Shown here: one piece after another, positions 1 to 40,356 of the stretch | How positions within the stretch are numbered: the first letter of the stretch is position 1 | Layout: every line of letters starts with the position of its first letter | NCBI GenBank assembly: GCA_046756565.1 | Contig: JBHHWO010000003.1 | Span: 144 to 64,143 of the forward strand | Origin: Thermoanaerobaculia bacterium | GTDB taxonomy: Bacteria; Acidobacteriota; Thermoanaerobaculia; Multivoradales; JAHEKO01 | DNA length: 64,000 nt | Reading direction: 5' to 3' | The notes under the pieces: generated by a model | Database searches by the model: none | The model's input: the letters and a program-made list of their open reading frames with translations, nothing else | What the model was told of the DNA's origin: nothing | Made by a program: the position numbers and the translations under genes

Positions 1-77
1 TTGCGTCGTGGGCGCCTTGGCAGCGCACACCATGACCTCGAGCCTTATGCACCGAACCACTGGGACAGGACACTAGC
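1..77. mobile_element. Right-hand part (including the right terminal inverted repeat) of a MITE-like repeat, truncated by the window edge
   Basis: nt 1-77 match nt 21236-21312 at 76 of 77 positions. The match ends with CGAACCACTGGGACAGGACACTAG, the right 24-bp TIR of the complete copy at 21144-21311 (one mismatch). Flanking sequence diverges immediately after ...CACTAG. Confidence 0.6.
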
Positions 78-270
78 AGCCCGTCGTAGAAGTCCAGATG
101 GTCGCGCGACAAGGTCTTACGGTACGCTTGCAAGGCACGAGGAGGACTCGATGCGGTGTCATCGTGGACGACGAGTAACGCCGCAGGCGTGCCGTAACCC
201 CTTGTCGCCCTGAGGGTTGCGGCGGCATGGGCGCTCGCAACGCGACCGTCTCGACTTCTACGACGGGCTG

Positions 271-903
271 CTAGTCTTTGCCAGGGACCGAGGGATTCAG
301 GGGATCGCGGCGCGTTCTCGGGTGAGGCGCCTGGATCTCGGCTTTCTCGTCCTCGATCTGGACCACGCCATTCAGAGGCTGGTCGGTAGTGATCGTTATC
401 GAGTAAAGCCCGGCAAGCTCGTCCCGCGGCGTGCGTGAGTCCTCGATCGCGAGAACATAGTGTCCCGGTCCACCGAGGGTTAGCGTCACGCTCTCGCCGC
501 CCGCCAGCCCCGCCATGTTCCAAGGGGCGAAGGAGTTGGTCAAGATGTTGGTGCCCGTCGTCGGATCGACGCCGGGCGCGAATAAGAACAGCTCCACATC
601 CAAGAAACCGTCGTCGTCGACCATGATCGTGATGCGGGTACCCGGACTCGGCACCGTCAGCCGCCACCAATCGCTGCCCGTGTTCTCCGGAGAACCGGGA
701 GGGCCCGTACCGAGTGCCCCTTGGAGCACGATCGGTGCGATCGACGCTTGCGCCCATGCGGTTCGCGTTCCGAAGAAGCTGCGAATTCCCGGACGCTGAT
801 ACGGCAGGGAACCGGCTACGGCACCCCCCACCATCCAGGCCGCTGCCCGGATCAGTTTGCGGCGCACCCTGAAGATGCCGACCGGCTCTTGGAGGTCTCC
901 CAT
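271..903 (-). CDS. Hypothetical secreted protein (N-terminal hydrophobic signal-like segment; beta-sandwich/PPC-like C-terminal region, tentative)
   Basis: 210-aa ORF with high third-position GC typical of real genes here. N-terminus ...LIRAAAWMVGGAVAGSLP resembles a signal peptide. No confident family assignment. Confidence 0.45.
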   Translation of the reverse strand: MGDLQEPVGIFRVRRKLIRAAAWMVGGAVAGSLPYQRPGIRSFFGTRTAWAQASIAPIVLQGALGTGPPGSPENTGSDWWRLTVPSPGTRITIMVDDDGFLDVELFLFAPGVDPTTGTNILTNSFAPWNMAGLAGGESVTLTLGGPGHYVLAIEDSRTPRDELAGLYSITITTDQPLNGVVQIEDEKAEIQAPHPRTRRDPLNPSVPGKD

Positions 904-18624: not shown

Positions 18625-18662
18625 TTCCCCAGCCTGGCTAGTCTAGCGCCCCGTGCTAGCGT

Positions 18663-20786: not shown

Positions 20787-20935
20787 AGGATCCTTCGATT
20801 CGTTGATTGCCGCGGAAAACCAATCGGCAAGGGACACGATGGAATCGGCACTGCGACCTACGGAGGCTTCGACAACCAGTCTGGAGGGGACACCTCGGAA
20901 ACGTGGCCCCGGGTGCTAGACTGGCAGCCCCGTCG

Positions 20936-20955
20936 GGGGCGATCCGCATCGCCCC
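20936..20955 (+). promoter_or_regulatory. GC-rich hairpin in the tatA leader immediately upstream of the RBS
   Basis: GGGGCGAT-CCGC-ATCGCCCC. An overlapping alternative stem GCCCC-GTC-GGGGC lies just 5'. RBS AGGAGG at 20958-20963. Confidence 0.3.
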
Positions 20956-20970
20956 ATAGGAGGTAGATCA

Positions 20971-21147
20971 ATGCCCACACTCGGTGTACAAGAACTTCTG
21001 ATCATCCTGCTCATCGTCCTGGTGATCTTCGGCGCTTCCAAGCTGCCCCTACTCGGTAAGGGGCTCGGCGAGGGCATCAAGAACTTCAAGAAAGGCATCA
21101 AGGACGACACCTCCGACAACACCGGCTCTTCCGAGGGCGGCTCCTAG
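20971..21147 (+). CDS. tatA: Twin-arginine translocase subunit TatA/E (58 aa; below the ORF-track length cutoff)
   Basis: [46 protein letters not shown]... matches the TatA TM plus amphipathic helix. AGGAGG RBS 7 nt upstream. Confidence 0.85.
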
Positions 21148-21311
21148 TGTCCTGTCCCAGTGATTCGCTACACAAATCTCGGGCCTTTCTGCACGCTGCC
21201 GGCGTTGCCACTCCTCAACATAGGCCCAGCTATGCTTGCGTCGTGGGCGCCTTGGCAGCGCACACCATGACCTCGAGCCTTATGCACCGAATCACTGGGA
21301 CAGGACACTAG
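21144..21311. mobile_element. 168-bp MITE-like element with perfect 24-bp terminal inverted repeats (CTAGTGTCCTGTCCCAGTGATTCG), flanked by CTC on both sides
   Basis: The left TIR at 21144-21167 is the exact reverse complement of 21288-21311. The internal 21236-21312 is repeated at nt 1-77 of the window. The element begins inside the tatA stop codon. There is no long ORF inside. Confidence 0.65.
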
Positions 21312-21334
21312 CTCGGGACGCCAGCTCTCGTCGA

Positions 21335-22117
21335 CTATCCGCTCACCGGAGACGCGACCTCGCCGTCGAAAAGGTCGACCCGGCCCGAGCTGCGCCAGAC
21401 GTCCTGGTGGTGATCCACGTATCGAGATAACACCTTGCGCACGTACGACCGTGTTTCGCGAAACGGAGGCACGCCGTTGAAGCGCCGCACATTGCCGGGT
21501 CCGGCGTTATACGCCGCGAGCGCGAGTTCCAGATCGCCATCGAAGGACGCCAGCATCCGGCTCAGATAGCGAGCGCCCAGGTCCACGTTGGACGCAGGGT
21601 TCAGCGCCTCCCGGTACCCGTAGAGCTCGGCGGTCGCAGGCATCACCTGCATCAGCCCCAAAGCGCCGACCGGTGACACGGCATCGGCATCGAAGGCAGA
21701 CTCGACTTCGATAACGGCGGCGAGCAGGAACTCGTCCAGGCTGTGCCGCTCCGCCGCCTTCTGAATCAGTTTCGCGTACGGCAAGTGCTCGAGGTGCGCC
21801 AACCGCTCCTCGCGCGGGTTGACCGAGCGAAAGAGCTGAAAGCTCGTCGGACGGGCGCGGACGGCCTCGGCCAGATCGGACGGGCCGACGCCAAGAAAAT
21901 TACGGTCCTCGGGGCCGATCCACTCGACAAGCTCCTCCAGGATCGCGATCTCCTCCGGCGACGGAGGTGGCGGCCGATCGTCCGAGATCGACGGAATCGT
22001 CGGCTGGGGCGAGTTGAGTGCGACGACCACGAAGAACGCAGTGGCCACCGTGACGCGAGACGCGCGAGTTCGAAAAGACATGATGCTTGTAGGTGCGGAT
22101 ATAAGGGCCGAAGGCAC
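21335..22117 (-). CDS. Lytic transglycosylase (SLT-domain) with N-terminal membrane anchor/signal
   Basis: ...EVESAFDADAVSPVGALGLMQVMPATA...AAYNAGPGNV... SLT catalytic motif. GTG at 22117 or ATG at 22081 as start. Confidence 0.8.
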   Translation of the reverse strand: MPSALISAPTSIMSFRTRASRVTVATAFFVVVALNSPQPTIPSISDDRPPPPSPEEIAILEELVEWIGPEDRNFLGVGPSDLAEAVRARPTSFQLFRSVNPREERLAHLEHLPYAKLIQKAAERHSLDEFLLAAVIEVESAFDADAVSPVGALGLMQVMPATAELYGYREALNPASNVDLGARYLSRMLASFDGDLELALAAYNAGPGNVRRFNGVPPFRETRSYVRKVLSRYVDHHQDVWRSSGRVDLFDGEVASPVSG

Positions 22118-40328: not shown

Positions 40329-40356
40329 GCTTCTAGTCTAGCCGGGAGCCGAGCAG

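Follow-up and report, generated by a model that had tools for sequence, protein, structure and literature searches.

A miniature element, very probably derived from an IS630-family insertion sequence, at the tatA stop codon of a Thermoanaerobaculia genome

Introduction

A palindromic repeat sits exactly at the end of the tatA gene in the stretch of Thermoanaerobaculia DNA analysed here, which has a length of 64 kb and which we call the window. What kind of element is this, how did it come to lie on a stop codon, and was the TatA protein altered by it? A first-pass annotation of the window had described a 168-bp MITE-like element whose left end supplies the stop of tatA, with a second copy at the start of the window. 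We compared the locus with syntenic relatives and with members of the same repeat family in other genomes.

Results

Anatomy of the repeat

The 24-mer CTAGTGTCCTGTCCCAGTGATTCG is found at 21144–21167 on the plus strand and at 21288–21311 on the minus strand without a single mismatch, and once more at 53–76 on the minus strand with one mismatch. No match to it arose in any of 100 dinucleotide shuffles, and the exactly reverse-complementary 24-bp ends reported by the first-pass annotation are thus borne out. The 168-bp unit with its inverted repeat also stands, but the element proper is a 162-bp body, A1, accompanied by a duplicated TA within CTAG (Table 1). The perfect repeats of this body measure 21 nt, or 24 nt if CTA and TAG are counted, and the inverted repeat runs inward to 38 nt at 87% complementarity; A1 is a near-palindrome throughout. 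It had been described as having no ORF. It is indeed non-coding, but two ORFs can be called mechanically across it, of 54 and 46 aa and none longer; a protein search returned no homologues of them. A tblastn search of the 64-kb window revealed no transposase gene (best E = 0.13).

Table 1. Features of the window and of family members in other genomes. Positions are those of the window unless a locus label (L) is given.
Feature	Position	Strand	Remarks
tatA	20971–21147	+	58 aa; Pfam TatA_B_E in homologues; stop TAG 21145–21147
Convergent lytic transglycosylase (SLT) gene	21335–22117	-	Without the MITE, stop 23 bp from the tatA stop
Unit as first drawn	21144–21311		Target C + TA + MITE body + TA + target G; perfect 24-nt inverted repeat
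MITE body, copy A1	21147–21308	+	162 bp, GTGTCCTGTCCC...GGGACAGGACAC; boundaries drawn from 16 further complete members of the family
A1 left TIR	21147–21167	+	21 nt; identical to the right-end repeat of IS630-family elements
A1 right TIR	21288–21308	-	21 nt
Left copy of duplicated TA	21145–21146		With G21147, the present tatA stop; TA/TA in 17/17 complete copies
Right copy of duplicated TA	21309–21310		With G21311, the original TAG; from the reconstructed empty site
MITE copy A2	1–73	+	Right 73 nt of the same body, cut by the window edge; TA at 74–75
Element B	76–271		196 bp, palindromic, MITE-like, unrelated to A; TA at 74–75 and 272–273 within CTAG
Hypothetical gene ORF	271–903	-	TAG stop (complement of 271–273) = last base of B + TA
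MITEs of 159–160 bp	L007, L010, L013, L016, L024, L036		~70% identical to A1, full length
Elements of ~265 bp	L006, L014, L031		One MAG
IS elements of 1191–1194 bp	L001 3085–4275; L002, L008, L018, L019		Same termini as the MITE

Empty sites and the end of tatA

The order of genes around the repeat (APH, tatA, convergent SLT, HTH_8, LysM) is kept in three relatives, L068 (GCA_024224155.1), L069 (ERZ25072999) and L070 (Logan SRR29324593). In all three, 164 bp are missing and tatA is closed by CTAG, which settles the comparison of tatA 3′ ends that the first-pass annotation had proposed. When the A1 body and one TA are removed from the window, ...GGC TCC TAG CTCGGG... is obtained. As the reconstructed empty site keeps the TAG, and as tatA of the relatives ends in CTAG, the stop codon existed before the insertion and the TatA protein of 58 aa was not altered by it. 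The left end of the element supplies the stop only in the sense that the present TAG is made of TA and the element's G21147.

The exact TatA sequence of the window has no match on record, and close homologues were used for comparison. Those at 81–91% identity have 55–63 aa with similar acidic/Ser-Gly tails, a length range that includes the 58 aa of the window protein. Thus, of the suggested change in the tatA C-terminus or 3′ untranslated region, the former is contradicted by both the empty sites and the homologues, and the latter did take place. The insertion widened the spacer between tatA and the SLT gene from 23 to 187 bp; in the three relatives the two stops are 18 bp apart or overlap.

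A1 is accordingly a small element with terminal inverted repeats and a TA target-site duplication, has no transposase of its own and is matched by empty sites. The MITE reading holds for an element that is non-coding, has inverted-repeat ends, recurs within the window and is missing from syntenic relatives.

Family members and IS630-type parents

We scanned a genome collection, one genome per species, with AGTGTCCTGTCCCAGTGNTTCG as the query. The scan yielded 36 loci from MAGs of Acidobacteriota (Vicinamibacterales, Terriglobia, Bryobacteraceae), Gemmatimonadota (Gemmatimonadaceae) and a Rokubacterium, with 3–7 loci apiece in related MAGs. Aligned in register, the ends have a constant terminus, GTGTCCTGTCCC..., with TA, usually CTA, before it. 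This terminus is shared by three size classes of 159–160 bp, ~265 bp and 1191–1194 bp, and by longer variants. The closest full-length MITEs (~70%) come from Vicinamibacteria MAGs, that is, from another acidobacterial class. The subfamily of A1 itself, searched as TATGCACCGAANCACTGGGACAGG, gave no matches in the JGI metagenome collection.

Each of the 1.19-kb elements carries one ORF. In L001 this ORF encodes 388 aa, with helix-turn-helix domains at the N-terminus. It reaches 280 bits (cut-off 100) with the NCBIfam model NF033545, 'IS630 family transposase', and 4.8e-25 with Pfam DDE_3. The protein of these autonomous partners is 62–65% identical to annotated IS630-family transposases on Roseomonas, Ralstonia and Sinorhizobium plasmids. 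A search for an autonomous IS with matching terminal repeats had been recommended, and five such IS630-type elements of 1.19 kb are thus present in other genomes.

Each MITE end can be matched to the right end of the IS (GTGTCCTGTCCCAGTGRTTCG) over 21 to ~30 nt; similarity to the left end of the IS extends over only 12–14 nt. The MITE therefore consists of two such right ends, which enclose a palindromic core of unrelated sequence. No clear counterpart of the MITE interior was found in the 1.19-kb IS, and weak matches were seen only inside the longer variant L011.

The longer IS variants, L011 601–2240 and L012 4819–6496 (1.64–1.68 kb), contain ~450 bp of extra sequence, located between one end and a transposase gene that is truncated or frameshifted. 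Profile comparison shows a weak resemblance between this segment of L011 and the interior of the MITE (E = 3e-5 and 3e-4). The transposase frame of the parent IS reads through the right-end repeat (L001 3112–4278, ...TTGTGH; Roseomonas plasmid L073, CDS 398–1498, ...TTESGH), and its stop is a TAG made of the duplicated TA and a flanking target base. As the frame is closed in this manner, the insertion site determines the stop of the transposase.

Target site and duplication

TA is present on both sides in 17/17 complete MITE or IS copies, and C stands before the TA at 43 of 48 ends. Two copies are informative with regard to the length of the duplication. For L036, the target is TTAA (cTTA...TAAa) and for L014 it is CTAC (CTA...TAC), and in each of them the two flanks have only TA in common. 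Thus, only TA is duplicated, and not CTAG.

The CTC found on both sides of A1 had been put forward as a possible 3-bp target-site duplication. The family contradicts this, since the 3 bp outside CTAG differ in 15 of the 17 complete copies, all of which have TA/TA. Apart from A1, they match only in L018, and since an equivalent match occurs at one other copy among 17 we treat the CTC at A1 as chance. Judged from these alignments, the true duplication is the TA inside a CTAG target. TA duplication by cut-and-paste transposition is a hallmark of the IS630 family, and TA within CTAG is the preferred target of IS630 (PMC2170065 and its references to Tenzen 1990 and 1991).

The outer 3-mers of A1 and L018 would also fit a MITE from another family that has CTAG in its own ends and generates a 3-bp duplication, CTC in the case of A1. 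A related option is a 4-bp duplication of CTAG as in IS5-type elements, since IS5-related MITEs that duplicate CTAG exist, e.g. MITEPsy1 (PMC3189936). We regard such an origin as very improbable. Besides the disagreement of the outer 3-mers in most copies, neither a 4-bp nor a 3-bp outer duplication fits L036 (TTA...TAA) and L014 (CTA...TAC), on which count the IS5-type assignment of A1 was rejected, and the full-length elements with these ends encode a transposase of the IS630 family and not of the IS5 family.

IS630 ancestry, on the other hand, agrees with two observations, namely ends that match those of a transposase-encoding IS, and a TA duplication with a preference for CTAG. Taken together, the anatomy of the element, the TA duplicated at its flanks, the bias towards CTAG, the empty sites in relatives and the autonomous elements with matching ends in other genomes lead us to conclude that A1 is very probably a non-autonomous MITE derived from an IS630-family (Tc1/mariner-type) IS, which landed in the CTAG of the tatA stop without a change in TatA.

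Distribution of CTAG in the window

The window contains 38 CTAG sites, compared with 79–208 expected; the genome has 65% GC. We sorted these sites with a crude gene model of 51 gene calls, in which genes make up 87% of the window. Eleven are stop codons (10 from the crude gene model plus that of tatA), 17 are intergenic and 10 are within genes. The 51 crude calls end in TAG 23 times, compared with 24 times in TGA, and 10 of these 23 TAG codons follow a C, so that stop codons hold a large share of a tetranucleotide that is otherwise rare. With the rare CTAG lying mostly at stops or between genes, a transposon that seeks CTAG is steered to gene ends, and this explains the position of A1.

An excess of family ends exactly at the stops of long ORFs (at least 100 open codons) was not found, with 9 cases vs 13 and 6 in the other frames. 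The position at a stop codon is therefore best read as a by-product of CTAG targeting and not as a rule of the family.

The 9-mer CTAGTCTAG, present at 18638–18646 and 40333–40341, was considered as an excision footprint and rejected, as it is conserved in L068, just upstream of start codons. Both occurrences are located a few bases upstream of a minus-strand gene start, the first being kept as TAGTCTAGCG in L068. Such a motif may resemble the −10 box of a promoter (TAnnnT) and belong to transcripts with short leaders.

The second copy and element B

Positions 1–76 of the window correspond to positions 93–168 of the repeat unit with 98.7% identity. The recurrence had been given as 77 bp; 76 bp with one TIR mismatch do recur, but the 77th base is flank. 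No further copies were detected in the 64 kb beyond A1 and A2 with nhmmer and a profile built from the family.

Two visible copies, one of them cut at the window edge, might simply have arisen by segmental duplication, or by misassembly at an inverted repeat. We give this reading next to no credence. The flanks of A1 and A2 diverge immediately beyond the TA, where the SLT gene follows in one case and element B in the other. Moreover, A1 interrupts a gene order that three relatives share and has a clean TA duplication, and the family is present in many independent assemblies, including multi-megabase contigs. A true repeat also agrees with independent short-read (Logan) contigs of SRR29324596 that are 100% identical to the window: these end 27 nt inside A1 (the end of L037 is at 21285) and, in the case of L071, ~30 nt inside element B (about window 241), as expected for repeat-induced breaks. 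These contig ends, about 27–34 nt into the elements, suggest that A1 and B are each either repeated or variable in the sample.

Both MITE copies had been placed at 3′ ends of genes. This is correct for A1 at tatA, but A2 is separated from ORF 271–903 by element B, whose terminus is GCAGCCCGTCGTAGAAGTC, with an inverted repeat of 35 nt at 94% and a predicted fold of −140.8 kcal/mol (z = −13.5). A2 and element B have one TA (74–75) in common. This arrangement is consistent with the successive insertion of two TA-duplicating elements at one CTAG. The product of ORF 271–903 is 100% identical to ACE5GX_00560 of a Thermoanaerobaculia MAG, and in homologues that share 65% identity with it the gene closes with ...gaCTAGt and is not followed by an element. 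Element B has true relatives only in the metagenome loci L039 (136 bp long) and L041 and, in part, in L057. Most other matches to its repeat turned out to be unrelated coding sequence (peptide D-F-Y-D-G-L-L) and were discarded. The scan with the B repeat did not find an autonomous partner.

Hairpin fold and a candidate role as RNA

The 168-nt unit is predicted to fold as one long imperfect hairpin, with −89.4 kcal/mol (z = −10.5) on the plus strand and −112.9 kcal/mol (z = −12.3) on the minus strand. To assess its conservation we aligned eight diverged copies, A1 (window 21145–21310) and L007, L010, L013, L016, L024, L034 and L036. In this alignment 92.8% of cells are paired, compared with 31–47% with a slid partner, and 14 pairs are changed on both sides, compared with 1–5 when slid; the observed values were not attained in any of 500 shuffles. 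When all eight are put in one orientation, it is always the same strand that has the more stable fold, by 4.5–23.5 kcal/mol. This consistent bias implies an enrichment of G-U-type pairs on one of the strands.

Such a pattern could arise if the hairpin were kept for a function, either as RNA, for instance as a 3′-end stabiliser or as a barrier to transcription between tatA and SLT, or as single-stranded or cruciform DNA. Pairing and two-sided changes beyond the slid and shuffled controls speak for this, as does the better-folding strand in every copy, and ERIC-type MITEs have been reported to alter mRNA stability (PMC2229807). At A1 itself, however, neither a T-tract terminator, a promoter consensus nor an IHF site was seen in or next to the element, and the Rfam 15 covariance models gave no relevant match in 20800–21700 up to E = 10. 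Relatives also cope with convergent genes that overlap or are spaced by 18 bp. Furthermore, covariation and strand bias may stem from a few palindromic master copies or from the needs of transposition. We therefore consider selection for such a function rather unlikely, although a role of the hairpin as RNA, as read from the fold, is possible.

One could also read the fold and the parent IS jointly. Selection would then act on the single-stranded form, be it an RNA hairpin that shapes convergent 3′ ends or a structure used in transposition, and in the parent IS a transposase C-terminus set by the insertion site, where the frame is closed by TA and a G or A of the target, could drive the CTAG preference. 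This reading is speculative, and we doubt that it is correct.

Discussion

The following course of events would account for the locus. An IS630-family DDE transposase, supplied in trans, would bind the ends of the MITE and excise it by cut-and-paste. Insertion at a TA, preferably within CTAG, would duplicate the TA. At tatA, the target was the CTAG in which the final sense base of the gene meets its TAG stop, and the stop was rebuilt from the duplicated TA and the first G of the element, so that TatA was left unchanged. Both tatA and the convergent SLT gene thereby gained a hairpin of ~164 nt in their 3′ regions. That the MITE is mobile we infer from comparative anatomy. Mobilisation in trans would presumably depend on a cognate transposase elsewhere in the source genome, and any effect on transcripts would likewise be a presumed one.

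This work adds a previously undescribed MITE, along with its parents in the IS630 family, to what is known of uncultured phyla from soil and sediment, namely Acidobacteriota, Gemmatimonadota and Rokubacteria. Its main value is for annotation, and it explains contig breaks in assemblies of these phyla. Insertion into a stop codon needs no special biology, only a transposon that prefers CTAG and a genome that confines CTAG to gene ends. The MITE family could serve as strain markers, and if the hairpin affects transcripts, MITEs could be a source of 3′-end variation.

Comparison with known systems

REP and BIME sequences, which are mobilised by RAYT, are palindromes of 20–40 bp with a GTAG or CGTC head and without target duplication. 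A1 was ruled out as a member of this group by its size of 162 bp, its TA duplication and ends in common with a DDE-type IS. Correia elements duplicate TA. Together with the ERIC/IRU elements of Enterobacteria, those of Neisseria are palindromic repeats of 100–160 bp that are co-transcribed with their neighbours and form long RNA hairpins (PMC2229807). A1 resembles both in kind, but the hosts are unrelated, and no IHF site, promoter or terminator consensus accompanies A1. MITEPsy1 of Pseudomonas syringae, which is related to the IS5-family ISPsy2, also targets CTAG (PMC3189936), but it duplicates 4 bp whereas the A1 family duplicates TA alone.

The closest agreement is with the IS630/Tc1/mariner group. 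IS630 of Shigella sonnei and ISY100 are like the present family in TA duplication, CTAG preference and short TIRs (PMC2170065). Elements of the group encode a single DDE transposase with an N-terminal helix-turn-helix, and the full-length relatives described here pass the NCBIfam IS630 model; A1 differs from IS630 elements in having no transposase and a length of only 162 bp. A precedent for such a derivative is the pneumococcal MITE RUP, which has been attributed to IS630-Spn1 (PMC2229807). RUP has 107 bp and resides in a low-GC Firmicute, whereas A1 is a near-perfect hairpin of 162 bp in a high-GC member of the Acidobacteriota, and no sequence relationship between the two is expected. As a small, non-coding element that has ends matching those of an IS630-family IS and is inserted at TA (PMC2229807), RUP is nevertheless the closest analogue of A1 in kind.
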